The translations under genes were made by a program, and so were the position numbers. From a virus, in the IMG/VR virus record IMGVR_UViG_3300025154_000082, positions 4,296 through 68,295 of that record: 64,000 nucleotides of DNA, one strand, 5' to 3'. The notes under the pieces are model-generated. The model worked only from the letters and a program-made list of their open reading frames with translations. It was not told the origin of the DNA and ran no database searches. Shown piece by piece: positions 2,531 through 53,654 of this stretch; the stretch's first letter is position 1; each line of letters opens with the position of its first letter.

Positions 2531-3112
2531 CTATTTGCTTTTAGCAGGTAAATAATTAATTGGATTTAATGAATTAGTTCCATTATTAGTACGAATTTCA
2601 AAATGTACATGTGGGCCTCTGGATAGTAATCCGGTATTTCCAGACAAAGCAATTACATCATTTTGATTTACTTTATCTCCAACGTTGACTAATAATTGAT
2701 TATTATGTGCATACACAGTCTGTTTTCCATCAGAATGATTGATATACACAACATTTCCAATCATTTCATTAAATTCTGCTTTAATTACTATGCCAAAATT
2801 AGAGCAATAAACTTTACTATTTTCCACTACTGCAATATCAATTCCATAATGAAATCCATTTAATGAAGACTCTCTTGGGCCATAAGGACTTGAGATTATT
2901 CCATCTACTGGATAAATATAATTAGAGGAAGAAGAAGTAAGCAATATATAAGTTTTATTAATGACAATGTTTAAGATACTTTTTGCTTCCTCTGTGGTCA
3001 ACTCTCCTTTAGCTGAGACAGGATGAGGTATTGACAATAAAGTTAATAATAAAAGTGAAAATAATAGTTTTTTGCTTGGCTTGGGAATTAATTTTCCTTT
3101 TGTTTTTCTCAT
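2531..3112 (-). CDS. secreted M23-family metallopeptidase (LytM-type peptidoglycan hydrolase)
   Basis: signal peptide MRKTKGKLIPKPSKKLLFSLLLLTLLSIPHPVSA; M23 signature HYGIDIA ... NHSDG ... YAH ... GNTG...GPHVHFE. Confidence 0.75.
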   Translation of the reverse strand: MRKTKGKLIPKPSKKLLFSLLLLTLLSIPHPVSAKGELTTEEAKSILNIVINKTYILLTSSSSNYIYPVDGIISSPYGPRESSLNGFHYGIDIAVVENSKVYCSNFGIVIKAEFNEMIGNVVYINHSDGKQTVYAHNNQLLVNVGDKVNQNDVIALSGNTGLLSRGPHVHFEIRTNNGTNSLNPINYLPAKSK

Positions 3113-3115
3113 AAT

Positions 3116-3328
3116 TCACTCTCTTATAAAATAAGGAGTCAAAACCAAATTCCCTTTATAACATTGATTTGCACTCATATAAACCTTTCTCCAACCTCTC
3201 GTCATTAAATCTTCATAAAATTTTCTTTTATAATTCACAAAATCATCAACACTATCAAATTCCAAATGATTAATAATGTCATGGATTCTACGACCTTTAT
3301 TAACCATTATTGATAATTTAATTCTCAT
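3116..3328 (-). CDS. hypothetical protein
   Basis: 70-aa ORF, no recognisable motif. Confidence 0.3.
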   Translation of the reverse strand: MRIKLSIMVNKGRRIHDIINHLEFDSVDDFVNYKRKFYEDLMTRGWRKVYMSANQCYKGNLVLTPYFIRE

Positions 3329-3361
3329 TTAATAATACCTCCTTAAATTAAAGTACCTTAA

Positions 3362-3660
3362 TCAACTCTTCTCCTCGGATAAATCCTATCTTTATCCTTA
3401 CCATCCCAATCTGGAGATTTTAAAGAAACAAAATTCTCTCCTAAATTAACTCTAATGGCAAATCTCTGATCACATGTCGGACAATAATTTAAAACATGAA
3501 TAAGTTCAGAATCAGTATCTTTTGTGATAATAGATTTTTCGGTAAATGTAGGATATTTAATTGCACATATTTAACAATTAAAAGTTACAGTTTGAAGTCG
3601 TTTTTGTGCTTTCTTATAGAGAGAATTACTTGGTTTTAGGATTGTATATAGTTTTCTCAT
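3362..3660 (-). pseudogene. small zinc-ribbon protein gene interrupted by in-frame TAA (codon 30)
   Basis: strong RBS aagggagg 8 nt before ATG 3660; frame MRKLYTILKPSNSLYKKAQKRLQTVTFNC-stop-ICAIKYPTFTEKSIITKDTDSELIHVLNYCPTCDQRF... continues in frame to 3362; stop lies inside first CxxC of a Cx2C...Cx2C ribbon. Confidence 0.3.
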
Positions 3661-3697
3661 TAATAATTCCTCCCTTATAACTATTCTTACCCCCTAC

Positions 3698-3982
3698 TCA
3701 ATCCAAATCTCTTTCCTCGCTATTCTCAAGCAAATCCATCACAGCATCAAAATAATCAATAACATCCTCACTTGGCTCAATGTCCCATCCACGATCATAA
3801 TAAACTTCACAATCATTATGATTAAACTGTTCTCCACCAAAAATTGCTAATACACTAACCCTTCCACCATCAATTCCAAGTCTAGATGGGGTGTTGTATA
3901 GTTTAGCATTAAATTTAAATCTACCAACTTCCCCTTTAACCCAATTAGAATTATTGTCAAATTTAGTAAAATATGCTTGCAT
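3698..3982 (-). CDS. hypothetical protein
   Basis: 94-aa ORF with acidic C-terminus. Confidence 0.35.
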   Translation of the reverse strand: MQAYFTKFDNNSNWVKGEVGRFKFNAKLYNTPSRLGIDGGRVSVLAIFGGEQFNHNDCEVYYDRGWDIEPSEDVIDYFDAVMDLLENSEERDLD

Positions 3983-4251: not shown

Positions 4252-4540
4252 TCATTTCAACTCCTTTGGATGTAATGTAGAATGAATTGGCATTCCTCTC
4301 TTTCCACCCTAGTTTAACCATTCCAAGCATTAAAAGATGATTTAGATTATGTCTGACTCTCAAATGATTGATGTCAATTGCAAGAGATATATTCCTTACA
4401 GTTCTGCTGTTCATTGGATCAGTAAGATTTTCTGAAAATAAATGATGTAGAATATCTATCTCTAATTTTGATAGCATTTTAATTAGTTCACCTCGCTTTG
4501 TTTTAATAATGTGTGATAATGTATCTGATTGTTCAACCAT
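4235..4540 (-). CDS. winged-helix DNA-binding transcriptional regulator (MarR/ArsR-like)
   Basis: 101 aa; helix-turn-helix-like segment LKMLSKLEIDILHHLFSENLTDPMNSRTVRNISLAIDINHLRVRHNLNHLLMLGMV followed by wing. Confidence 0.4.
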   Translation of the reverse strand: MVEQSDTLSHIIKTKRGELIKMLSKLEIDILHHLFSENLTDPMNSRTVRNISLAIDINHLRVRHNLNHLLMLGMVKLGWKERNANSFYITSKGVEMIETKT

Positions 4541-5928: not shown

Positions 5929-7434
5929 TTATGATTCTAATAAATTATCATAATATTTCCAACCAAGAGGTACTCCTGTTTCGGGATGCAATCCGCAATA
6001 CTTTGCTTTATTTCTGCAACATAGAGATATACCTGAATGAAAAATATTATATTTTAATCCAGCCTCTGTTTGAGAATTAAATATTTCTCCAGTAGTAGTG
6101 CATATTATTTTACTAAAAACTCTTTTGCTTTTATATCCACTTTTTCTAGTCTCTTCTTTTGGGTCGTAATCACACCAACCTAGCTCAGTTCCCTGCTTAA
6201 GATATTTTATAACCGTTGATCTACATTTTTTTATTATACTTGATATTTTTAATGTGTTTTTAATATCATTCCACATATTACAAATAGTTTTTACAATGCT
6301 TTTACAAGCATATTCATAACATTTTAACCAGTCTATATCACTTTCTGAAAAATTTAAAAGTTTTGGCAAATCTGATTTCATAATACTGTTTTTAATCCAA
6401 TTCATATTTGAATATCGACAATCTAAGACTATGTAATTATTAATATTATTGTTTCTAGCTAATTGTTCTTTTACTTTGTCATTCTCTTGGACTTCATTTA
6501 ATCTCATTCTCCATGTACTATTAGTTTCTTCATAATGTTGAATTCCTTGACACTCACAAATAATTTCATCAATTTTATTTATGTAAAAGTCATATTTATA
6601 ATTATCGCACCATTTGAAAGTTTTTTCAGATAATTGTGTATTAAAATCATTGCCTAATAATTGTTCAAATACATTAAATAAAAATTTCTCAGGAAAACTT
6701 ATACCGTCCCCACAACATTCACATCCAAATCCTTTTTTCCACAATTTATCCAAACTCTTTTGTTTCTCATGTCCACAATCTGGACATTTCATTGGAATTT
6801 TTTTATTTGAACCAACTGAATATTTATAAGCATCTTCTTTATTAACTAAAAATTTAATAAGTTCTTGATGCGTAACTGAAATTGTATTACACATAATACA
6901 ATCAAGACTTATGGTAGATCCTTTTTTTATTGTTGTATAAGTAAAACGAGCAATACTTTTTAATTCGGATTTATGTTCTGGATGATCTAAGCATTTAAAC
7001 CAGTAGCCCTTATTATTAAAACCTACCGAACCATAACTTACATATTTAGGACTTATTATATTGCCATTTTCGTCAATATTTAAACTATAATCCCAACGTG
7101 ATAATATCCAATCAGCCAATTCTTTAGAGAGATGGGTATAGCACCACTCATAAAAAGAAATATAATTTTTGTGTCCAGTTTGAGAACATTTATGACAATA
7201 ATATCTTCCATCTTCTTTTACATATTTCTTGTAATTAAGCCATTTCATAGGTTTTAAATATTCTTTACATCCATCACATTGAACGTCAACTATAGCACTA
7301 GATGCATGTGTTAAATCTTCTACTTTTACTTTAAATTCCTCTCCAAGTTTAGTAAAGGCAAATCCTTTATCTATGTACCACTTTTTACTACTAAAATGCC
7401 ACTTCATTATTACCTCTTTAGTTATTAATCCCAC
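5929..7434 (-). CDS. zinc-ribbon-repeat / DUF559(Vsr-like) endonuclease-family protein with C-terminal homing-endonuclease-type HTH
   Basis: repeated W-D-x-x-N ... YWFKC..H / CxxC zinc-ribbon modules; core DFYINKIDEIICECQGIQH (DUF559/Vsr-like PD-(D/E)xK pattern); C-terminus GEIFNSQTEAGLKYNIFHSGISLCCRNKAK..GWKY resembles NUMOD-like HTH tails of phage HNH/GIY homing endonucleases; paralog of 52374..53654. Confidence 0.5.
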   Translation of the reverse strand: MGLITKEVIMKWHFSSKKWYIDKGFAFTKLGEEFKVKVEDLTHASSAIVDVQCDGCKEYLKPMKWLNYKKYVKEDGRYYCHKCSQTGHKNYISFYEWCYTHLSKELADWILSRWDYSLNIDENGNIISPKYVSYGSVGFNNKGYWFKCLDHPEHKSELKSIARFTYTTIKKGSTISLDCIMCNTISVTHQELIKFLVNKEDAYKYSVGSNKKIPMKCPDCGHEKQKSLDKLWKKGFGCECCGDGISFPEKFLFNVFEQLLGNDFNTQLSEKTFKWCDNYKYDFYINKIDEIICECQGIQHYEETNSTWRMRLNEVQENDKVKEQLARNNNINNYIVLDCRYSNMNWIKNSIMKSDLPKLLNFSESDIDWLKCYEYACKSIVKTICNMWNDIKNTLKISSIIKKCRSTVIKYLKQGTELGWCDYDPKEETRKSGYKSKRVFSKIICTTTGEIFNSQTEAGLKYNIFHSGISLCCRNKAKYCGLHPETGVPLGWKYYDNLLES

Positions 7435-7483
7435 AATCTAATCCTCCTCTTTCTATAAATTATTATATTTCTCCCTACTTAAT

Positions 7484-7512
7484 ATTATAGCATAAATAGT
7501 AAATCATGTCAA
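7484..7512 (-). promoter_or_regulatory. consensus sigma-A promoter (TTGACA-17-TATAAT) for partition operon
   Basis: minus-strand TTGACA at 7507-7512, 17-nt spacer, TATAAT at 7484-7489; RBS aggagg at 7443-7451 precedes start 7434. Confidence 0.55.
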
Positions 7513-7689
7513 CATATATTTATTTTATAATTTAATAATTTTCTCTATCCCTTTCAGTGTTGTCCGGCCCAAACACTTATCAACATGTGTATAAAATTTT
7601 AGAAACTTATACACAGCCTTGTCGATTTGTAGTATAATGTATTAACATGTCCAACCCATATTAATGTTAATTTTTAGCAAAAGAATAAT

Positions 7690-7762
7690 AGCAAAAACTC
7701 CTTGAAGTGCTAGTTTGGTCGCGAACACTTCAAGGAGCCACAGCAGAGGTTGTTTTCGTTTG
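7690..7762 (-). ncRNA. candidate ~70-nt antisense countertranscript (ctRNA) in rep leader
   Basis: minus-strand promoter at 7770-7798; perfect 12-bp stem 7698-7709/7726-7737 (ctccttgaagtg / cacttcaaggag) with 16-nt loop; on minus strand hairpin is followed by UUUUUGCUAUUAUUCUUUU. Confidence 0.4.
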
Positions 7763-7769
7763 TATTTTT

Positions 7770-7798
7770 ATTATAACAAAAAGAAAACCTTCTGTCTA
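7770..7798 (-). promoter_or_regulatory. promoter for antisense RNA (TAGACA-17-TATAAT)
   Basis: minus-strand -35 TAGACA at 7793-7798, 17-nt spacer, -10 TATAAT at 7770-7775. Confidence 0.4.
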
Positions 7799-7842
7799 GT
7801 GTGTTTTTGTTGTTGGCAAAACATGGAGAGAAGGTTTTTATT

Positions 7843-8772
7843 ATGAATATGATTAGAGATCCAAAGAAGTTAAGAAGAGTTCCAATCAAAGAAGAATTAG
7901 TTGAAATTACAGGTGATTACATTAAGGCAGTTATTTTGCAACAATTTATTTACTGGTCAGAAAGAACCAAAGATTATGACCAATTTGTTTTAGAAGAAAA
8001 GTTTCAGGCCGAAAGGTGTGGATATGAATACAAGGCAGAATTGAAAAACGGATGGATATTTAAGAGTTCTGAACAACTATCAGAAGAAACTATGCTTAGA
8101 TTAAAACATACCGCAATGCGTACACATATTAAGGTATTAGTGGATAAGGGTTTTCTATCTGAGAGAACTAATCCTCTTGATAAACGGGATAGAACCATAC
8201 AATATCGTGTGAACATTTTAGCAATACAACTTGATCTACTAGAACATAACTATGTCTTAGATGGATATTCTAGTCCAATTAATTTTGAAACTCTTATGGA
8301 AGTTATCCACAAGAAAAAGCAATCTCGGAATGCGGAAATGCAAACATCATTAAATGGAAATGCTTCATCAGAATGTGAGATTGCACAGCCGGAAAACAAT
8401 AATGGCATAGAATATGGGGTTGAAGACATAATTGCATTCTCGGAAAACGGAAATGCATCTCCGCAAATATGCAATGCAACTAGCGAAAACATGCAAGCAT
8501 TACCAGAGACTACTTACAGAGATATATATCTTATTGATATTAATCGCGTGTGGGAAGAGGTTGTGGATAACTTGAGAAAGAAATTGTCTCCTGCTTCTCT
8601 GTCTGCTTGGATATTACCCATCATACCAGAAATACAGGAGACAAAGTTAATACTTAATTGTTCAAGTCAATTTGCTGTGGATTGGATAGAGGGAAAATAT
8701 CTTAGTATGATTGTTAATTGTTTGCCTGAAAATAGTGGAATTAAGGATGTTGTTGTATGTGAAAGTTCTTAA
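7843..8772 (+). CDS. RepA_N-like plasmid/phage replication initiator (winged-helix N-terminus)
   Basis: RBS ggagagaagg before ATG 7843 (ORF track starts upstream at 7801); N-terminal IKAVILQQFIYWSERT ... GWIFKSSEQLSEETMLRLKHTAMRTHIKVLVDKGFLSERT ... IQYRVNI resembles RepA_N wHTH; one of few plus-strand genes; ori-like repeats lie within its central region. Confidence 0.5.
   Translation: MNMIRDPKKLRRVPIKEELVEITGDYIKAVILQQFIYWSERTKDYDQFVLEEKFQAERCGYEYKAELKNGWIFKSSEQLSEETMLRLKHTAMRTHIKVLVDKGFLSERTNPLDKRDRTIQYRVNILAIQLDLLEHNYVLDGYSSPINFETLMEVIHKKKQSRNAEMQTSLNGNASSECEIAQPENNNGIEYGVEDIIAFSENGNASPQICNATSENMQALPETTYRDIYLIDINRVWEEVVDNLRKKLSPASLSAWILPIIPEIQETKLILNCSSQFAVDWIEGKYLSMIVNCLPENSGIKDVVVCESS
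8303..8571. other. putative origin of replication inside rep gene (DnaA boxes + iteron-like direct repeats + AT-rich tract)
   Basis: perfect DnaA box ttatccaca at 8303-8311 and inverted perfect box tgtggataa at 8562-8570; 20-bp direct repeat tctcggaatgcggaaatgca (8323-8342) / tctcggaaaacggaaatgca (8438-8457) in different reading frames plus ggaaatgc at 8356-8363; AT tract gatatatatcttattgatattaat 8521-8544. Confidence 0.4.
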
Positions 8773-8864
8773 AGGTTTTTCAGGAGAAAATGATTGGTAA
8801 ATATTTATGGTTTTATTTGTATTAATTTAGTAGTATTATGTAGCAAAAAGAAAGTTAGTGCAGA

Positions 8865-9647
8865 ATGTTCGACTATGAACAAGAATCAGAAATTGAGAAA
8901 ATGCTTAAAGATGAAATCAGAGAGCAAAAGCGAACTGGCAATGGAATTCATGGTCGAGCATTAAGATTAAGAAAACACGAAACAGTTAGAACCCCTTCAG
9001 AATCTTTAGTAGGAATAGAAAGATTGAAAATTTATGCACCTTCTGTAATTCACTCAACAACGATTGGAGAAATGAAAATGACTGAACTTCTAGAAAAGAT
9101 TAAATTAGGTGAAATTCCATCTAAGTCAGAATTTGAAGCATTAGATTTTGAGAGTAATCAAAAAGCTTTAGCTGAATTGAGAAGATTACACACTAATCAT
9201 GAAATTATGAAAAGTTGGAAATGTTCGTCTACATCTCTTAGTAATTTCTTCGCAGAAATGCAAGTTGCAAAAATTAAAGGTGGAGAAATATTGATTGGAA
9301 AGTCTGCTGTTGATTTTTTAAATAAAGGAAGAATTACAAGAGGATTGCCTAAAATTGGTGAAGATAGTAATCAGGAGAAAATTAAAAGGCCATATAATAG
9401 GGTCGCTCCTATAGATAATTCTAAAGAAATTCTGAGTGAAAATATTATTCCCACTCAGAATGTAGATTCAATTTTTATTAATCAAAAAGAAACCATAATT
9501 GAGAATAACTATTTAATCAATGTTAATAGAAAATTTAATACTAGGAACTTGGCTTCTTTTTTGGAAAGGTTAACTCTATTTCTCAGTGAAGAGAATCAGG
9601 AATTTTTAGTTGAAATTAGAGTTATTGAGGTTGGGAGTAAAAGGTAG
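8865..9647 (+). CDS. hypothetical protein co-transcribed with rep (replication-associated?)
   Basis: 260-aa plus-strand ORF immediately downstream of rep; no clear motif. Confidence 0.35.
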   Translation: MFDYEQESEIEKMLKDEIREQKRTGNGIHGRALRLRKHETVRTPSESLVGIERLKIYAPSVIHSTTIGEMKMTELLEKIKLGEIPSKSEFEALDFESNQKALAELRRLHTNHEIMKSWKCSSTSLSNFFAEMQVAKIKGGEILIGKSAVDFLNKGRITRGLPKIGEDSNQEKIKRPYNRVAPIDNSKEILSENIIPTQNVDSIFINQKETIIENNYLINVNRKFNTRNLASFLERLTLFLSEENQEFLVEIRVIEVGSKR

Positions 9648-15206: not shown

Positions 15207-16520
15207 ATTTTAACCTCCTATAATAAAATCTCATACGGACTCACTTGAACTTCACACGAATTAATTAGTGTGATTCTTAATTCATTGACCAGACTAACGC
15301 CCAATCTCCTTAAGCTAACCCTGTAGTTCCTACAGTTTTTATTAATTATGCTATTAACTTCAATCCTTCATTTCTAATATTAATAGCAGCATTTATGTCT
15401 CTATTATGACTACTGCCACATTCTGGGCATTTCCATTCCCTAACACTTAAATCTAAATCAACATATTTCCATCCACAAACATGACAAAGTTTACTACTAG
15501 CAAAATATCTATCCACAACAGAAATTTCTCTACCATACCAAATTGCTTTATAATTCAACATTGTAGTAAAACTATACCATGAAGCATCTGATATACTTTT
15601 CGCTAATTTATGATTCTTCTTCATTCCTTCAATATTAAGATCCTCTAGGCAAATAACTTGATTTTCATTGATAAGTCTAGTTGATAATTTTTGAAGAAAG
15701 TCCTTCCTAGTATTAGTAATTTTCTCATGAAGTCTAGCCACTTTAATTCTTGCCTTGTTTCTATTTTTACTACCCTTTTTCTTCTTAGATAGTTTTCTTT
15801 GAAGTTTTACTAATTTATCTTCATATTTACGATAATATTTTGGATTATCAATAATTTCACATTCAGATGTAATAGCAAAATCTTTAATTCCCAAATCAAT
15901 ACCAATATTTATTTCTGATTTAGGTAATTTAATAGGCTCTGGCACTTCGCAAAGAATAGAGATAAAATATTTACCACTAGGAACCTGAGATATTGTTACA
16001 TTTTTAATTATTCCAATTACTTCTCTTGATTTAGCAAATTTAACTAAACCAAGTTTAGGAAGTTTAATTCTATTGCTTTCGATTCTAATATTATTATTTG
16101 TAAAAGTAGTACGATAAGACTTTCTATTATCTTTTTTAGATTTGAATTTTGGAAAACCTTGATTATTATTACCTTTCTTAATTTCTCTAAAGAAATTCTG
16201 ATAAGCTAAGTCTAAGTTTTTAAGAGTTTGTTGGAGAGATATACTATCAATTTCTTTAAGTCATTCAAATTCTTTTTTAAGTTGAGGTAGGAGAATAGCA
16301 CATTGATTATATGTTAAAGTTTGATGATTTTCTTTATACATCTCGATCCTTTTATCTAGAAAGTAATTATAGATGAATCTATTTGAACCTAAATGTTTAT
16401 TGATTAAAATTGTTTGCTCTTTGTTTGGGTATAGTCTGAATTTGAATGTTTTAAGCAATTGATACTCACCTCCAATATTTATTTATTATATCAAATTTTT
16501 AACTGATTTGTTAACAATTT
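15207..16520 (-). mobile_element. degenerate IS200/IS605-family TnpB-only element (IS1341-like)
   Basis: tnpB fragments in several frames; 3' tail 15230-15345 conserved with tail of intact copy at 47380-47503. Confidence 0.5.
15346..16458 (-). pseudogene. tnpB: tnpB pseudogene (multiple frameshifts)
   Basis: N-terminal 65-aa piece 16261..16458 and C-terminal RuvC-III/zinc-ribbon piece 15346..15945 (CHVCGWK...CPECGSSHNRDINAAINI) match full-length 47504..48637; middle third broken. Confidence 0.55.
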
Positions 16521-19974: not shown

Positions 19975-20139
19975 TCTCTGCTACTAAAAATATAGACAAA
20001 TATACTCAATTATCTATATCTAGATAATTGCTGATTCATAGTGTCTGTTTTTGTATTATTTCTAACACTACTCACATTTGGTGTAACACTCCACAGCCGT
20101 AAATTCCCGACTAGCCATCGGTATTTGATAATATTTGTT

Positions 20140-21319
20140 TTAAGCAACTTTAAATACTTTAGCATTCTTCAAATTTACACTTGCATTTTTATCACGATCA
20201 AGAATCATTCCACATTCTTTACAAATATATTCTCTATCTGAAAGTTTCAAATCCCTATCTATAGCACCACATTCACTACACATTTTACTTGAAGGAAAAT
20301 ATCTATCAACAATTCTTAACTCAATATTATTCCATGAACATTTATATGTTAATTGCCTTCTAAACTCATGAAAACTTTGTTCGGCGACTGCTTTAGATAA
20401 ATGCCTATTCTTCATCATCCCCTTGACGTTCAAGTCTTCGATCACTATATACTCTGGTTTGTTTTTCACCAGAATATTTGTGATTTGATGAGCATAATTT
20501 AAACGAATATTGGATAATTTTTGATAAATAGTTCTGATTTGAGCTTCTAACTTGATAATGTTTTTAGTTTTAATGAACTTCTTGCCATCTTTGTTCATTT
20601 CGTATTTTTTAGAGACTTGACGTTGAAGTCTTCTTAATTTTCTTTTAAGTTTCTTTACAGCAATAGTCTTATTGATATTTTTGAATGGTTTATCAATATT
20701 GCTGATAATTGCCAAATCCTTAACCCCTAAGTCAATTCCAATTCCTTCATTACTAACATTTGAATAATTATTATTGTCTACAATATCACACAGTACAGAA
20801 ACATAATACCTTCCTGCTTTCATTGAAACAGTACCACTTACTACTTTTGCATTGGTTGGAATATATCCTTTTTCTTTCAGTTCGACAAATCCTAAAGTTG
20901 GAATTTGTATTTTATGACGTTTAACAGTCCAGTCACCCTTCCCATTCTTAGGAAAATAGATATTAACATCTTGATTTTTCTTCTTCTTGAATCTAGGGAA
21001 TTTAGCTTGCCCCCTTAAAGAATCTTTTATATGCCATTTCTGCATTTACGATTGCTTTCTTTCTTGCCTTTGACCCACAATTATCAATCCATTTGAATTC
21101 ATCTAATACTTTTACTTCATTATTAATATATTTATCAAAATCATTGGCACTCATAAACGCTTGTTTCTTGTCAATCTTACCTTCTTTGTATAATTTATAA
21201 AGTTCTTGATTCTTAGTTAAATAAGAATTATAGAGGAAGCGACATATGCCAATTGATTGATGAATTTTATTAATATGAATTTCGGTTACTCTGAGTTCAG
21301 TTTTAAATCCTTTGAGCAT
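20140..21319 (-). pseudogene. tnpB: tnpB with single-base frameshift in poly-G tract
   Basis: ORFs 21002..21319 and 20140..21045 join as ...AYKRFFKG/QAKFPRFKKK if the GGGGG run (plus-strand ccccc 21011-21015) is GGGG; C-terminal zinc ribbon CSECGAI...CKECG. Confidence 0.55.
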
Positions 21320-32321: not shown

Positions 32322-33473
32322 CTAATCCATCAAATCCTTCATCCACGACAAATCCTCTTCATCTACTTTACTATCTTTATTATTAAACATCTCTAAAGTA
32401 TCAAGATATGCCTTATATGGTGCGTGAATTTTTGCTGAATAACCATTCAAATTCGCCAAGAAATAACTTTCTGTATCTGTAACATCTTGCCACCATATTT
32501 TATTATCCAATGTATTTTTATATTCAACTTGCTTAACCTTAATCTCTTCAACTGTCTTTACAATATCATCTAATAATTCTTGAATTGATTCATCATCTAG
32601 CGATATTTCAACATAACAATCTTTAACTACAAATTTACTCTTTACATCACCAGGTAAACATTCTATTGAATTGTCAACTACCATTTTATTAAGATAATCA
32701 TCTATTTCTTCTTCGCTGAATTTACTATCTGATTTCTTTAACCACATCTTAGCATTTGATGATAAACTACTTCCTATAGCATTTCTTTCAACGATTCTAC
32801 TTTTTAATTTGCCATTAGCTTGCATACATTCTACTTCTACATATTTAAGGAACGCCCATCTAGCAATAATTTGATCCATCGGTATGTTTAGTTTTTTGTG
32901 GACACCATAACTATAAAGTAGAAGTTGACCTTGCTCTTTCTCTATTTTTTTACCTTTATACAAGGAGCTTGTTTTCCAATCTGTGATTACGCAGATATCT
33001 TTATCTTCTCTTTTTTCCATATGTATAGCATCTACATAAGCCTGTATTAGTATATTATTTATCTTTATTGGAACAAAGACTTCAAGTTTCAATTTATGAG
33101 GTATTCGTTGATGATTTTTAAAGAAGTGTCTCATACATGATTCATATTTATTTCCTATTTTTTTATTTTTGTCTTCATCACTTCTATCATATTTTAGATT
33201 GCCAATAGTAAATTCAAATAGTTTTTCTTCAAATATTTCTATCATATCGGCGTAGGATATTTCTTTATTATAATATTTTTCTAATATATCATGAGAAGCG
33301 TTACCAAATACCCCGTATATTGAATCTTTTCTGTCCTCTGGTATTTTAAGAATATATCGTAAGAAGAAAGTATAAGTGTCTCCTTTGTATTGGTTATATT
33401 TTGACCATGAATATATTTCATCACAATCTAATTTATTAGCTATTAATCTAATTTCTTCGCCTGTTTTACGCAT
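32322..33473 (-). CDS. PD-(D/E)xK nuclease, RecB/Cas4-like exonuclease
   Basis: motif II YVDAIH and motif III VITDWKTSS (hDYKT-like). Confidence 0.5.
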   Translation of the reverse strand: MRKTGEEIRLIANKLDCDEIYSWSKYNQYKGDTYTFFLRYILKIPEDRKDSIYGVFGNASHDILEKYYNKEISYADMIEIFEEKLFEFTIGNLKYDRSDEDKNKKIGNKYESCMRHFFKNHQRIPHKLKLEVFVPIKINNILIQAYVDAIHMEKREDKDICVITDWKTSSLYKGKKIEKEQGQLLLYSYGVHKKLNIPMDQIIARWAFLKYVEVECMQANGKLKSRIVERNAIGSSLSSNAKMWLKKSDSKFSEEEIDDYLNKMVVDNSIECLPGDVKSKFVVKDCYVEISLDDESIQELLDDIVKTVEEIKVKQVEYKNTLDNKIWWQDVTDTESYFLANLNGYSAKIHAPYKAYLDTLEMFNNKDSKVDEEDLSWMKDLMD

Positions 33474-34248
33474 TAGTTATAATCTCCTCTTTATCTATAT
33501 CTTGAAATGTACATTGCCTATGAGTTTTTCTTTTACCTGCTAAACACTTATTAACATTAGCTTGTATTAAATCATATTTTTTACATATATCAGTTATTAA
33601 ACCTATGTCACTTTCTCCAGAAGGTAAATTTATTTTAATGTATCTGTTACTTCTTTTATTTCTTGAATTTTCACTTCTTGTTACTATTCTAATATTTTCT
33701 TCTTCATAATTACCATTGTTATCAATTCTGTCTACTTCATATATTTTATGATTTTGTAATAAATCTTCATACTTATCAACATTTTGTAAATAATCAATGA
33801 AATATTCAAAGCACAGCCAATTTTCTGAAACGAATATTCCTCTCCCTCCATAATCAATATAACTTTTAGTTGATGGATTGTAACATCTCTCTAACATTTG
33901 TTTCCAATGGGGATATAATTTATGGCGAGAAGACATATTACCCAAACACCCAACTCCACAAACTGCACCGTAATAATATGGATTTTTCAAAGTTCCGTTT
34001 TTTATATTATGATGTCTAGCCGATAATTGCGTACCATCATCAAATTCTACCAAAAAGGTATGATAATTACGGCGTTTTTCTATCATACCAACAATTCTAC
34101 ATATACCATAATTATTTGTTTCCCATAAACTACCGTTATAATATGTAACGGAGGTGTTAGCTATTAATTGAATTTCTTCAAATTGTTTTCTCAAGTCTTT
34201 TGTCCCTCTCTTTAATATATTTTTTATGTTCTGAGTCATCATATACAA
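33466..34248 (-). CDS. HNH homing endonuclease with C-terminal HTH
   Basis: HNH core EVDRIDNNGNYEEENIRIVTRSENSRN; C-terminal ...KCLAGKRKTHRQCTF. Confidence 0.6.
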   Translation of the reverse strand: MYMMTQNIKNILKRGTKDLRKQFEEIQLIANTSVTYYNGSLWETNNYGICRIVGMIEKRRNYHTFLVEFDDGTQLSARHHNIKNGTLKNPYYYGAVCGVGCLGNMSSRHKLYPHWKQMLERCYNPSTKSYIDYGGRGIFVSENWLCFEYFIDYLQNVDKYEDLLQNHKIYEVDRIDNNGNYEEENIRIVTRSENSRNKRSNRYIKINLPSGESDIGLITDICKKYDLIQANVNKCLAGKRKTHRQCTFQDIDKEEIITNA

Positions 34249-35283: not shown

Positions 35284-35949
35284 TTACTTAACTATTTTTG
35301 CATCAAATCCATATTTTTCATATAAATGACTATTGTTAAAATTTTTTATTTTTATCTCCTCCTTTAATCTTGCTATAATAGCATCATCTAATTCATCAAA
35401 ATAACCTAAATGTTTTTTCTTTCCATAAAATATCTGTGAATGCCATTTATTCATCTGTTTGTTAAAATAAACTCCTTGGCAACCACTACTATTATTTATA
35501 TTTGGGTTCCTATTAACATTATTTTGTCTGTGATCTGTAGTTCTGAGATTATATTTACGATTATTACTTTTTTGTCTATCGATATGATCAACTTCTATTT
35601 CTGGATTATTGACTCCCATAATAAGCCTATGTATTCTAATTGTTTGTTTTTCATCTTCATCATTTTCTGATATACTAGAAACAATATATCCTCGTTTGTT
35701 TTTATGCCAACAATATACTTGTATCTTATCATAGTCTTCTAAATCAAATTCAAAGTAATTATTTCTAAAATCATAACCTATACCATATTCACCAGTTAAA
35801 TCATATGTATTAGTTTTGCTACACCTAGCAATATTAACTTCTTTTTGCAAACATCCACAACTTCGAGTATTTCCATTTCTTAAACTAGTGCCATTTACTG
35901 TAAATATAGTTTTAAGAGGACAACTACATTGAACAATCCAATGACACAC
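35284..35949 (-). CDS. HNH-AP2 homing endonuclease
   Basis: IEVDHIDRQKSNNRKYNLRTTDHRQN followed by AP2-like SGCQGVYFNKQMNKWHSQIFYGKKKHLGYFDELDDAIIAR. Confidence 0.7.
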   Translation of the reverse strand: MCHWIVQCSCPLKTIFTVNGTSLRNGNTRSCGCLQKEVNIARCSKTNTYDLTGEYGIGYDFRNNYFEFDLEDYDKIQVYCWHKNKRGYIVSSISENDEDEKQTIRIHRLIMGVNNPEIEVDHIDRQKSNNRKYNLRTTDHRQNNVNRNPNINNSSGCQGVYFNKQMNKWHSQIFYGKKKHLGYFDELDDAIIARLKEEIKIKNFNNSHLYEKYGFDAKIVK

Positions 35950-40706: not shown

Positions 40707-41315
40707 TTACTTTTTGGGGTAGTTAACAGGAGCAAATTCACCAAAATATTTTAATTCTGCTTCTTTACGGACTTTAACTGCTTCATCGAAATCATTAAAA
40801 CTTCCTAAATATATTTGCTTTTTATCTACTGTAATTCTTACTCTCCAACTATTATTAAGAGATTGCCAACCAACTCCTGTCGCACCAGATGTATTATTAC
40901 TTTTGATTGATATGTTCATTGCATTTTGAGTATTTGAAGCTATTCTTAAATTATTTCTTCGATTATCATACTTATGTCTATTTTTATGATCAATTTTTCC
41001 ATTGTAGCCAATCAAAAATTTATGTAATTTAATTCCCTTTCCATTTATTCTAGCAACCACATATCCATCTTTATCGAAATACCACGAATGTAATTCAACT
41101 GCATCCGAATCAGATATGTCATAATAAAACTCACGATTTGTATCAGTGTAACCAACTTTATGATCTTCTTTTAATTCGAATATATTCGGAGGAACATCAT
41201 GTCTTATTCTTTCTTTATATAAACATCCACAACTTTGAATTCTATTAGATTTTAAATGAGTACCCCTAACTACTTTGACATTTTTATTAATGCATTGACA
41301 CTCACACAGCCACAT
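40707..41315 (-). CDS. HNH-AP2 homing endonuclease
   Basis: IDHKNRHKYDNRRNNLRIASNTQN + AP2-like SGATGVGWQSLNNSWRVRITVDKKQIYLGSFNDFDEAVKVR. Confidence 0.7.
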   Translation of the reverse strand: MWLCECQCINKNVKVVRGTHLKSNRIQSCGCLYKERIRHDVPPNIFELKEDHKVGYTDTNREFYYDISDSDAVELHSWYFDKDGYVVARINGKGIKLHKFLIGYNGKIDHKNRHKYDNRRNNLRIASNTQNAMNISIKSNNTSGATGVGWQSLNNSWRVRITVDKKQIYLGSFNDFDEAVKVRKEAELKYFGEFAPVNYPKK

Positions 41316-47503: not shown

Positions 47504-48637
47504 TTAAGCACTTAATAATCTCATACCTTCATTCCTAATATTGATTGCTGCATTCACATCTCTATTATGATATGAATTACACTCTGGACAATCCCATTCT
47601 CTAATAGATAAATCTTTTACTTCAATGTTTTTATAACCACAAACATTACATAATTGAGAAGAAGGAAAAAATCTATCTACTTTCTGAACAATCCTATCAT
47701 GCCATAATGATTTATATTGTATTATTCTAACAAACTCACTCCAAGATACATCATTAATTGCTTTTGCCAATTTATGATTCTTAACCATATTTTTAACAGA
47801 CAAATCTTCTAAGCAAATTATTTGGTTTTCTTTAATAAGCCTAGTTGATAATTTTTGTAAAAAGTCATTTCTTTGATTAGTAATCTTTTCATGAACTATG
47901 TTGAGTTTAATTCTCGCTTTATTCCGATTTTTGCTACCTTTTTTCTTCTTAGAAAGTTTTCTTTGTGTCTTTTTTAATTTATCTTCAAGTTTAGATAAAT
48001 ATTTTGGATTGTCAATAATTTCACCTTCTGACGTAATCGCAAATTCTTTTAATCCTAAATCTATTCCCACAATGTTTTTATTGTTCTCGAATTCTACAAC
48101 ATCTACTTCAGTACAACATATAGATACAAAATATTTACCAGAACAAGTCTTAGTAATAGTGCAATTCAATATTCTCCCTTGTATTTCTCTTGATTTAGCA
48201 AATTTAACCAATCCAAGCTTAGGCAATTTAATTAAATTACCTTCAATTCTAATATTGTTGTTAGTTAAGGTAGTTCTATAACTACACTCATGATTATGTT
48301 TAGATTTAAACTTAGGAAATCCCTGATCTTTATTACCATTCTTAATTTCTCTAAAGAAATTTTGATATGCTCTGTCTAAATCTTTTAAAGAATTCTGTAA
48401 AGCAAATTTATCTATTTCCTTTAACCATTCTTTTTCTTTTTTAAGAATAGTTAAATCCGCAGAACAAGCATTATAATTCATAGATTTTTGTTCTGTTTTA
48501 TATAGTTCAATTCTTTTAGCTAAATAGTTATTATAAACAAATCTGCAAGATCCAAATGTTTTTGCTAATTGTATTTTCTGATTTTCATCAGGACATAATC
48601 TAAACTTAAATGCTTTTTCTGTCATAAATAAATTCAT
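47504..48637 (-). CDS. tnpB: TnpB (OrfB) RNA-guided nuclease-family transposon protein
   Basis: 377 aa; N-terminal MTEKAFKFRLCPDENQ, RuvC-like blocks, C-terminal zinc ribbon CNVCGYK...CPECNSYHNRDVNAAINI. Confidence 0.8.
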   Translation of the reverse strand: MNLFMTEKAFKFRLCPDENQKIQLAKTFGSCRFVYNNYLAKRIELYKTEQKSMNYNACSADLTILKKEKEWLKEIDKFALQNSLKDLDRAYQNFFREIKNGNKDQGFPKFKSKHNHECSYRTTLTNNNIRIEGNLIKLPKLGLVKFAKSREIQGRILNCTITKTCSGKYFVSICCTEVDVVEFENNKNIVGIDLGLKEFAITSEGEIIDNPKYLSKLEDKLKKTQRKLSKKKKGSKNRNKARIKLNIVHEKITNQRNDFLQKLSTRLIKENQIICLEDLSVKNMVKNHKLAKAINDVSWSEFVRIIQYKSLWHDRIVQKVDRFFPSSQLCNVCGYKNIEVKDLSIREWDCPECNSYHNRDVNAAINIRNEGMRLLSA

Positions 48638-52373: not shown

Positions 52374-53654
52374 TTACTTTACACTTATTCCTTCAATAGT
52401 TTTACTTAATATTTCTTCAATTCTATCAAATTCATAATACCAAATCTCAAGAAAATTATACTCTTTTTCTAAAGCGTATTCTTTCTTTCGTCTGTCATGT
52501 TCGACTTGTTTTTCAAAGTCTTTAATTGATTTATGTATTCCTTTTACAAATCTTTCATGCATTTCACCTTGATATTCTATAAGTAAATTATATTGAGATA
52601 AATAAAAATCATAAGATAATAAACATCCACCTAGACCAATTAGTCCTTCAAATGTTTTTTGTGGTATGTAATTTATTTCTTTGTCGAATAATTTCTTGCC
52701 AACTTCAATTTCACCTATTGAACATTGACATTCTGGACATCTAAAATCACGCGAATTAGAACCATCAATGTTTCTCTTATAGTCTTTATGTTTACCGTCT
52801 TTACATTTCCACCAAACTTCTTTACCACTACGAGGAGCATATTCGTATGGAGATTTTTTATTTTTATTAGACCATAAATTTAAAACTTCAGGATGTATAA
52901 TACCTAAACTATCTAATTTATGCAGTATATGATTATTATTACAGTATGAACATCTTCTATCATTATAAAAATTACATGGTGACACATCATAACTCCCATG
53001 GTGTTCTTTATCTTGGCATTTAATCCATACTTTATTTCTTGCACATTTATCAATCTTCCAAGGATTAACAGTGTTTTTATCATGATCCCAATACTTTTCT
53101 AAAAAATCTTCTCCTAGATTATCTACTCCCCATTGTGCAAACGAATTACATTGTTTGCATTTTATAGATCCTTCCTGTCCACCAGTAAAAGCATTAATAT
53201 TCTTTAATTCACTATTATGTAAACTTCTTGGGCATTTAAAATAATGTTTTTTATTTGTAGCAAAACCTATTTCATTTGGGTTCTTTTTATTTAACTCATA
53301 GTCCCATCTGTCAAGAATGTCTTGTCGATTATTTTCAATACACCATTGTTCAAAAGATTTGCCATTCTTTAATTTTGATATTCTAAATCTTTCCTGACCG
53401 CATTTTAGACAATAATATTTTCCATCTTCCTTCATTATTCTTTTATAACTATGCCATATTACAGGTTTGGTAATTGGAGTAGTACATTCTTTGCAATCAC
53501 ATTTGACGTTTACTTCCACAGGACTACCATCTGTCAAATCTTCCACTTTAACTTCAAATTCGTCACCCATCTTAGTATAAACATAACCCTTACTTTTATA
53601 CCACTTTATATTGTTTGAATTCCACCTAATAATAACATTTTTAGTTAATAACAT
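52374..53654 (-). CDS. zinc-ribbon-repeat + C-terminal DUF559/Vsr-like PD-(D/E)xK endonuclease
   Basis: three W-D-x-x-N...KC..H...C..C ribbon repeats; C-terminus SYDFYLSQYNLLIEYQGEMHERF...DRRKKEYALEKEYNFLEIWYYEF matches DUF559 pattern DFYLP..LaIEvDG..H; N-terminus paralogous to 5929..7434. Confidence 0.5.
   Translation of the reverse strand: MLLTKNVIIRWNSNNIKWYKSKGYVYTKMGDEFEVKVEDLTDGSPVEVNVKCDCKECTTPITKPVIWHSYKRIMKEDGKYYCLKCGQERFRISKLKNGKSFEQWCIENNRQDILDRWDYELNKKNPNEIGFATNKKHYFKCPRSLHNSELKNINAFTGGQEGSIKCKQCNSFAQWGVDNLGEDFLEKYWDHDKNTVNPWKIDKCARNKVWIKCQDKEHHGSYDVSPCNFYNDRRCSYCNNNHILHKLDSLGIIHPEVLNLWSNKNKKSPYEYAPRSGKEVWWKCKDGKHKDYKRNIDGSNSRDFRCPECQCSIGEIEVGKKLFDKEINYIPQKTFEGLIGLGGCLLSYDFYLSQYNLLIEYQGEMHERFVKGIHKSIKDFEKQVEHDRRKKEYALEKEYNFLEIWYYEFDRIEEILSKTIEGISVK

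Follow-up and report, generated by a model that had tools for sequence, protein, structure and literature searches.

A candidate antisense RNA regulator upstream of the rep gene in a large phage-like element

In the staphylococcal RepA_N plasmid pSK41, the antisense RNA RNAI (~83 nt) has an unstructured 5' tail and is complementary to a part of the rep leader that lies ~100 nt before the start; its binding leads to a stem-loop that sequesters the ribosome-binding site (PMC5703833). In the pSK41 Rep protein (~319 aa), a DNA-binding winged-helix domain at the N-terminus is followed by a central linker, which origin DNA encodes, and by a host-factor domain at the C-terminus, and a review reports no RNA control of the pSK41 kind in RepA_N plasmids outside staphylococci (PMC5703833). 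In pT181 (RNAI/RNAII), and likewise in the RNAIII type of pIP501/inc18, a kissing-hairpin antisense RNA sequesters an anti-terminator, in pT181 that of repC; the pT181 terminator lies directly upstream of the start codon with the ribosome-binding site in its 3' arm, so that transcription and translation can both be affected (PMC5435934; PMC5703833). ColIb-P9 Inc RNA, R1 CopA/CopT and pMU720 RNAI have in common the 6-base recognition loop 5'-UUGGCG-3' (PMC3753616), and in IncK single loop changes set incompatibility (PMC10724649).

Here, we describe a candidate regulator upstream of the rep gene in a 64,000-nt stretch of DNA from IMG/VR virus record IMGVR_UViG_3300025154_000082 (positions 4,296 to 68,295 of that record), hereafter called the window, in whose coordinates all features are given. 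An antisense countertranscript (ctRNA) that regulates rep is the best explanation of the sequence found there, with a probability of roughly three in four. It would probably belong to a widespread and so far undescribed ctRNA family of the Firmicutes, captured here, probably, by a huge phage-like element.

The rep gene and its leader

The product of the rep gene (7843..8772, plus strand) is 309 aa long. A winged-helix DnaD/O-like domain at its N-terminus is joined by a disordered linker (residues ~159-229) to a DnaA_N domain at the C-terminus. The N-terminal region has DnaD/O-like PHROG matches and weak matches to MarR and RP-C winged helices, and the C-terminal domain is recognized by Pfam (DnaA_N, 7.9e-12) and by matches to DnaA domain I structures. 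An AlphaFold2 model of Rep reached a mean pLDDT of 54.6, with an N-domain at ~50 that was unusable. DnaA_N is present in 14 of 14 members of the Rep family, among which Pfam RepA_N (PF06970) gave no match at E <= 1. An earlier note, written from the letters of the window, had seen here the textbook antisense control of theta and RepA_N-type plasmids; of this, the ctRNA reading survives the comparative tests given below, and the assignment to RepA_N is not borne out by Pfam.

DnaA boxes cluster around rep. Two perfect boxes form a 13-bp inverted repeat (8300-8312 / 8561-8573) that flanks GGAAATGC repeats in the linker-coding DNA, where these motifs mark a candidate replication origin inside rep. 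The boxes inside rep are kept in L001, L002, L006 and L011, perhaps through coding constraint. Next to rep are a ParM/Alp-like gene and a homing endonuclease gene, and in relatives a ParM-like gene or a ParA/ParB-like pair, and the rest of the window consists nearly entirely of minus-strand genes. The window codes for ribonucleotide reductase, a 1030-aa DNA polymerase, a DnaB-like helicase, exonuclease V and thymidylate synthase, and also carries many HNH endonucleases and TnpB-like genes. An identical Rep occurs on at least 24 contigs from groundwater metagenomes (PRJNA268031 samples, for instance), some of these contigs being 0.2-1 Mb long, and Rep relatives are filed in IMG/VR as viral contigs. 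Because of the phage-type genes, the large contigs and the viral relatives in IMG/VR, the element is probably a very large phage or phage-plasmid with a plasmid-type rep/par module. Searches of a phage collection by blastn (7400-8900) and tblastn (Rep) gave no match, a plasmid collection yielded only distant homologues of the N-domain, and the Rep relatives that turned up in a scan of genome contigs were all distant (Desulfosporosinus and Paenibacillaceae MAGs). A member of the Firmicutes is the probable host. The rep and par module, with its actin-like or ParA partition genes, its initiator and its putative antisense brake, suggests plasmid-style copy control of this large element, as had been proposed before, and a self-set copy number would be expected if the element persists as an extrachromosomal prophage or phage-plasmid, not by lytic replication only.

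A predicted rep promoter (7610..7638, plus strand) has -35 TACACA (7610-7615), a 17-nt spacer and -10 TATAAT (7633-7638), and would start transcription at ~7645. Three close relatives, L001, L002 and L006, have it without any change. The untranslated leader of the rep mRNA is predicted to be ~198 nt long (7645..7842), with the rep ATG at 7843. The -35 of this promoter overlaps a DnaA-box-like sequence, TTATACACA (7607-7615).

Inside the leader, on the minus strand, lies the ctRNA promoter (7770..7798), with -35 TAGACA (7798..7793), a 17-nt spacer and an extended -10 TGtTATAAT (7778..7770), made up of TATAAT at 7775..7770 and the TG extension at 7778..7777. Its score of 11/12 plus TG was reached by 0 of 300 local shuffles (65-110 nt positional window), and close relatives vary in the extended -10 at one base alone, the 'n' of TGnTATAAT, which is under no constraint. 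Promoter-like hexamer pairs at the 9/12 level occur at chance frequency (14 found versus 14.8 expected in shuffled, 28% G+C DNA), so the ctRNA promoter alone proves little.

Hairpin H1 (7698..7737) follows on the minus strand; its arms, CTCCTTGAAGTG (7698-7709) and CACTTCAAGGAG (7726-7737), form 12 perfect pairs around the 16-nt loop CTAGTTTGGTCGCGAA (7710..7725). The inverted repeat is unique within the window even when up to 3 mismatches are allowed, no such repeat arose in 100 shuffles, and the stem has 50% G+C compared to ~28% in the background. Folding of the minus-strand RNA 7765..7685 gives -26.2 kcal/mol (z = -4.5), a stability equalled in 0 of 200 shuffles. Directly 3' of the stem on the minus strand is UUUUU (7697..7693), and next to H1 on the plus-strand side is CCACAGCAG, which makes the hairpin terminator-like on the minus strand only. 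An automated terminator scan did not call it because the 16-nt loop exceeds the 3-8 nt that the scan accepts; the U-run of only 5 nt and the unusually large loop count against H1 as a terminator. The predicted ctRNA of ~72 nt (7691..7763, minus strand; 5' end 7763, 3' end ~7691) would have a 26-nt single-stranded 5' tail (7763..7738), H1 (7737..7698) and the U-run (7697..7693), and H1 would serve it as both terminator and recognition stem-loop, with the complementary stem-loop in the rep leader as target. The earlier note had named the GC-rich stem with its loop, the minus-strand TAGACA-17-TATAAT promoter, the adjacent U-run and an RNA of ~70 nt antisense to the rep leader, and we find each of the first three in place and the RNA predicted; the rep TATAAT, which it had put at 7634-7639, is present 1 nt to the left.

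Rfam at gathering thresholds recognized no ctRNA family in the whole window, and at E <= 10 the region 7400-7900 and its Bacillus subtilis plasmid homologue (below) matched no ctRNA or antisense family (ctRNA_pT181, ctRNA_pND324, ctRNA_pGA1, ctRNA_p42d, CopA, RNAI and others). The best Rfam match, LhrC, scored 19.8 bits where the gathering score is 110, and is a chance match.

Downstream of the target stem-loop, the plus-strand leader contains three segments with alternative pairings. Segment A (7739..7763) is exactly complementary to the 5' tail of the ctRNA; while the transcript is still being made, this segment is predicted to pair with segment B. Segment B (7776..7801; AAAACCUUCU...) is the anti-Shine-Dalgarno (anti-SD) strand and can pair with either A or C. 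Segment C (7815..7842) holds the SD, GGAGAGAAGG (7825-7834), followed by UUUUUAUU. When the leader is folded stepwise, A:B (-17.1 kcal/mol) forms once polymerase is beyond ~7800, and B:C becomes the minimum-energy fold after C has been added. In the B:C hairpin (7783-7839, -22.3 kcal/mol), the SD is buried within the 3' arm; with UUUUUAUU and the ATG directly downstream, this hairpin resembles an intrinsic terminator that ends at the rep start codon. It has z = -5.2 (0 of 300 shuffles as stable).

For equivalents of the B:C hairpin in L006, L030, L023, L025 and L029, z lies between -3.4 and -8.3 (values of -3.8, -7.0, -8.3, -3.4 and -4.8). Their anti-SD and SD strands covary among loci (CCUUCU:AGAAGG, CCUCUU:AAGAGG, UCUCUUCU:GGAGGAGA), and a run of U5-U7 comes after the hairpin in the window, L006, L023, L025 and L029, but not in L011; the L028 leader has a canonical terminator in its place. 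When the B-C region was aligned by MAFFT, RNAalifold found no structure in it, the alignment being structurally inconsistent. The comparison of B:C was made by per-sequence folds, and that of distant H1 stems by a hand-made stem table, as MAFFT misaligned the H1 stems.

Taken together, these parts suggest the following course of events. A constitutive minus-strand promoter inside the rep leader would give rise to the countertranscript of ~72 nt (7763 to ~7691), for which H1 would double as rho-independent terminator. The ctRNA and the nascent rep mRNA would meet via their complementary 16-nt H1 loops, one of which has a UUGG(U)CG U-turn, and pairing would then spread through the ctRNA 5' tail until it covers segment A (7739-7763). 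Without ctRNA, A would pair with B (7776-7801) upon synthesis of B, leaving the ribosome-binding site free. With A occupied, B would pair with C (7815-7839) in a -22 kcal/mol hairpin that buries the SD GGAGAGAAGG, with UUUUUAUU at its end before the ATG. Translation of Rep would be blocked, and transcription may stop too. A higher copy number would in this way mean a higher ctRNA dose and less Rep. The mechanism is likely pSK41- or pT181-like, that is, a translation block with or without attenuation. No pseudoknot partner of the ColIb-P9 type was found for the H1 loop by eye in the rep leader. The production of the ctRNA, the kissing step, the A:B anti-sequestor and the division between translational and transcriptional effects are the parts that we infer.

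The A:B step is the weakest link of this mechanism. In eight loci (the window, L006, L030, L023, L025, L029, L011 and the B. subtilis plasmid), nascent folds lead to A:B and folds blocked by ctRNA lead to B:C. In L006, L029 and L011, the unblocked full-length minimum-energy fold retains A:B with the SD open. For the window, L030, L023 and L025, folding with no ctRNA present already gives B:C as the minimum-energy structure, and any effect there must therefore be kinetic. Compared to shuffled controls, A:B is modestly better (per-locus p 0.02-0.6), with a Fisher combination of ~0.01 that is uncorrected for relatedness. Segment B also overlaps the -35 box of the ctRNA promoter on the other strand, so that conservation of the two is confounded.

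Conservation among relatives

Leaders were collected from Rep relatives of 93% down to 38% identity, using IMG/VR, a metagenome scan for the stem, and contigs that encode homologues. In each, the best minus-strand promoter with a predicted start 65-110 nt upstream of the start codon was scored, with shuffles of the region as control. A strong minus-strand promoter, with a start site 76-104 nt upstream of the ATG, was found in 9 of 10 diverged loci, a set that counts the window. The predicted start lies 80 nt upstream of the start codon in the window (TAGACA/TATAAT with TG), 77 nt in L006 (TTTACA/TATAAT with TG), 81 nt in L030, 91 nt in L011 (TAGACA/TAAAAT with TG), 83 nt in L012 (TTGCCA/TATAAT), 76 nt in L023, 80 nt in L023b (the second rep paralogue in L023), 78 nt in L029 and 104 nt in L028. 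Shuffles reached the observed score in 0-3 of 300 trials for eight of these loci and in 11 of 300 for L028. The tenth locus, L025, has no convincing ctRNA promoter in the 65-110 nt range, its score being reached by 106 of 300 shuffles.

Each of the nine promoters is followed by a hairpin and a minus-strand U-run. The hairpins of L011, L012/L023b and L028 cannot be aligned with that of the window, and there are at least three mutually unalignable hairpin types. Since these share the same layout, it is the architecture that is conserved, not sequence alone. A predicted convergent promoter in the leader, a stem-loop, a recognition loop and a predicted terminator are all found at this locus, and these are the sequence-level features of cis-encoded antisense rep regulators.

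The hairpin put forward in the earlier note is also conserved in related replicons as a structure. H1 shows compensatory changes at at least five pairs, with no broken pair and all aligned pairs Watson-Crick. L030 differs from the window at 7705/7730 (A-T to G-C) and at 7707/7728 (G-C to A-T), and three further pairs have changed in L023, L025 and L029. The ctRNA body has 5-7 differences in 56 positions relative to L006 and L030, versus 21-22 in 58 for the sense-only part of the leader (7645-7691), and the promoter hexamers are likewise spared by divergence in these two comparisons. Four of the five changes in the ctRNA body of L030 make up the two compensatory pairs. Both the sequence of the window and the comparison among loci support the minus-strand promoter with its hairpin and U-run, the conservation of all three, and the hairpin that sequesters the SD.

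Symmetric changes in a perfect inverted repeat could also stem from template switching or from a palindromic protein site, with no selection on RNA.

The cassette is also present upstream of a rep homologue (90371-91840) in a cultured Bacillus subtilis, strain FX-1, on the 136-kb conjugative-type plasmid NZ_CP061871.1, which offers a tractable system for this ctRNA family. The antisense RNA predicted there would begin ~126 nt before the ATG.

The recognition loop and other readings of the hairpin

On the rep-sense strand, the H1 loop of the window carries UUGGUCG, a YUNR motif of the UUGGCG type. The rep-sense loop reads ...AGUUUGGCGACC... in L023, L025 and L029, AGUUUGGUCGCGAA in the window and AGUUUGGCCGCC in the B. 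subtilis plasmid, which places UUGGCG, UUGGUCG and UUGGCC, respectively, in the loop of the rep mRNA. It is the antisense RNA that carries the UUGG(U)CG motif in the lineages of L001, L006 and L030. UUGGCG contains the YUNR U-turn signature. For the UUGGCG loop shared by ColIb-P9, R1 and pMU720, Asano et al. 1998 (J Biol Chem 273:11826) is cited as a further source. Read across these loci, the H1 loop is conserved and not free to vary. A scan of viral contigs for the distant loop motif gave a single match, in a coding region of the 281-kb contig L031, which was discarded as a chance match.

In L001, L002, L006-L010, L013-L016, L018-L022 and L030, the 16-nt loop is the exact reverse complement of that of the window, between nearly identical flanks. 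For close relatives of opposite loop orientation, the leader minus the loop is 0.4-3.1% diverged versus 5-13% for the rep coding sequence. The window orientation is also found in L017, a sister sequence with 16 mismatches in 821 nt, and in all five independent assemblies with an identical Rep. A phase-variable switch was rejected because these five assemblies have one fixed orientation and orientation tracks lineage; to our knowledge, a 16-bp spacer is also too short for known invertases. Distant loops align to the window orientation with scores of 8 to 13 and to the opposite orientation with scores of -5 to 2. As the distant loops share their orientation with the window and L017, and the opposite one is found in the lineages of L001, L006 and L030, the history of the family calls for at least two inversions. 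Repeated recent flipping, which had been argued from four gametes, was withdrawn, as the window and L017 are sisters that share one event. The probable cause of the inversions is template switching at the 12-bp repeat. Hairpin-loop inversions between short inverted repeats are well documented in chloroplast DNA.

Inversion swaps the loops of ctRNA and mRNA and keeps their complementarity. That such a swap is tolerated favours a function in RNA-RNA complementarity (or as double-stranded DNA) over a contact with a strand-specific ligand or within a pseudoknot. After inversion, a replicon's own ctRNA and target stay matched, and the loops of sister lineages are identical, not complementary, so that co-resident relatives would escape each other's control. 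The predicted loop-loop pairing goes from -26.5 kcal/mol for the same orientation to -9.3 kcal/mol for opposite lineages, between which a palindromic UCGCGA core remains. Whether exact loop inversion serves as a one-step change of antisense specificity, by which sister replicons escape mutual copy control and a new incompatibility group forms by a single mutation, is doubtful, and we regard this idea as tentative. The flipped loop is a natural strand-swap experiment that may bear on the origin of incompatibility groups, and it is the one feature of this locus possibly beyond the ordinary.

The inverted repeat could instead work as double-stranded or cruciform DNA, as a palindromic operator (for example in Rep autoregulation) or as part of the origin, with an antisense promoter that is incidental; we consider this improbable. 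Spacer inversion and symmetric changes in the arms would be equally tolerable for a palindromic site, and the clustering of DnaA boxes around rep is in keeping with it, as is a loop-like motif, GTTTGGGCCGGACAA (7574..7560), that lies upstream of the rep promoter beside DnaA boxes and is kept in close relatives. However, no iterons or extra copies of the arms were found in the window, a better candidate for the origin lies inside rep, and both the A-run/U-run asymmetry and the TGn-extended -10 are strand-specific. L011, L012, L023b and L028 swap in unrelated hairpins, yet keep the promoter, the minus-side U-run and the position, which fits a transcript better than a protein-binding site.

Less probable still is a purely cis-acting attenuator or thermosensor, in which H1 and segments A, B and C would respond to a protein, a metabolite or the translation of a leader peptide, and antisense RNA would play no part. 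The alternative A:B and B:C folds that it calls for are present, and a 43-codon ORF (7715-7846) has an ATGA overlap with the rep start. This ORF, however, has its start within the invertible loop, and both the inversion and the indels of L006 abolish it; it is therefore not conserved, and the leader peptide was rejected on this ground. Any ligand or pseudoknot contact that depends on the strand would be lost once the loop is replaced by its complement, yet most close relatives have the inverted form as their fixed state. A cis-acting element would also leave the conserved minus-strand promoter unexplained, and no Rfam cis-regulatory family was matched.

That the minus-strand promoter drives a long leftward HNH endonuclease/ParM transcript, or that the hairpin just insulates that operon from antisense read-through, is very improbable. 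Nearly all genes of the window are minus-strand genes, the first one to the left starting at 7434, but that gene has its own perfect promoter (TTGACA-17-TATAAT with TG, 7512..7484), and a -22 kcal/mol hairpin and a U-run stand between the ctRNA promoter and the gene. The ctRNA promoter persists beside divergent neighbours (HNH/ParM) as well as beside neighbours co-directional with rep (parA/parB). The latter are found in L011, L025 (with the weak promoter score given above), L028, L012 and L023, where there is nothing leftward to express, so that the promoter serves no leftward gene.

Comparison with known systems

Control of rep by a ctRNA, the reading that we prefer, places this locus beside pSK41. 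The predicted RNA of ~72 nt with its 26-nt tail, the target 80-150 nt upstream of the ATG and the SD-burying hairpin are all like those of pSK41, as is the 309-aa Rep with the same three-part layout and with DnaA boxes and repeats inside the linker-coding DNA. Unlike pSK41 RNAI with its two stem-loops, the predicted ctRNA has one; the Rep N-domain is without a Pfam RepA_N match at E <= 1, the C-domain is DnaA_N, and there is no sequence or Rfam similarity between the two systems.

The B:C hairpin, with the SD in its 3' arm and U5-U7 thereafter (window, L006, L023, L025 and L029), is like the arrangement in pT181, termination itself being predicted. In contrast to this locus, pT181 is a rolling-circle plasmid with a Rep_trans initiator, and its Rfam family, ctRNA_pT181, has no match here. 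The recognition loop of ColIb-P9, R1 and pMU720 has its counterpart in L023, L025 and L029, whose rep-mRNA loop contains exactly UUGGCG. Those systems differ in that they use leader-peptide coupling and a pseudoknot, whereas neither a conserved leader ORF nor a pseudoknot partner was found here, and they reside in Proteobacteria with unrelated Rep proteins. As in the hairpin-loop inversions of plastids, the spacer between perfect inverted repeats is exactly reverse-complemented among close relatives; unlike in plastids, the loop here is the recognition loop of a predicted sense/antisense pair, so that the loops of the two partners swap. Belonging to no described Rfam family and paired with a Rep outside Pfam RepA_N, the predicted regulator is one that would work like the known antisense regulators of rep.

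Predicted antisense cassettes and the leader of rep

The same cassette as that preceding rep in the window occurs in a cultured 136-kb conjugative-type plasmid of B. subtilis FX-1 (NZ_CP061871.1, positions 90100-90370), where it comprises a TGcTATAAT promoter, a hairpin that has AGAGTTTGGCCGCCCAA as its loop and, on the minus side, U8, and where a hairpin burying the SD is followed by U6 and then ATG. The rep homologue downstream of it encodes 489 aa and is without a Pfam DnaA_N annotation. Contig L023, which also carries Rep relatives, has two tandem rep paralogues (1679-2710 and 3001-3921), both with DnaA_N, and each is preceded on its 5' side by one predicted ctRNA cassette, the two cassettes being of different, non-homologous types. 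In the window, the rep leader also contains a plus-strand ORF of 43 codons (7715-7846), which starts with TTG within the loop of H1, the 12-bp-stem hairpin of the predicted ctRNA, and whose last bases overlap the start codon of rep as ATGA. This ORF is not conserved in the relatives, because it is destroyed by the loop inversion and by indels in contig L006.

Elements flanking rep and mobile genes

Immediately 5' of the promoter and DnaA boxes of rep there is a small hairpin (AGTGTT / AACACT, 7549-7574), whose loop region on the minus strand, GTTTGGGCCGGACAA, is similar to the H1 loop. The motif, TCCGRCCCNAAYA in close relatives, is retained in those relatives only; the hairpin might serve as a site for a protein or as a pairing partner. 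A perfect consensus minus-strand promoter (TTGACA-17-TATAAT with TG, 7484-7512), which diverges from that of rep, points toward homing-endonuclease and ParM-like genes. HNH/homing endonuclease genes are unusually dense amid the replication genes of the window (5929-7434, 33466-34248, 35284-35949, 40707-41315, 52374-53654 and 59355-59918, all on the minus strand). The rep-adjacent HNH gene is missing from the related contigs L006-L010, where a GIY-YIG gene comes after rep instead. Also on the minus strand, a RAGATH-18 RNA (20028-20097; Rfam, 70.5 bits) is found immediately 3' of a TnpB-like 'transposase' ORF (20140-21045), and two more TnpB-like ORFs are present at 15346-15945 and 47504-48637.

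DnaA boxes and a candidate origin within rep

The rep region holds a DnaA-box cluster (7577-7615 and 8300-8573), and 4 of the 7 TTATNCACA sites in the 64-kb window fall within 7586-8570. Two perfect TTATCCACA boxes are arranged as a 13-bp inverted repeat, with arms AAGTTATCCACAA (8300-8312) and TTGTGGATAACTT (8561-8573), and the 248 bp between them contain GGAAATGC repeats and code for the disordered linker of Rep. The positions of the DnaA boxes in rep are unchanged in four contigs with Rep relatives (L001, L002, L006 and L011). This segment of boxes and repeats (8300-8573) is a candidate origin, and its placement inside rep resembles that in replicons of the type of staphylococcal pSK41, in which the origin lies within rep.
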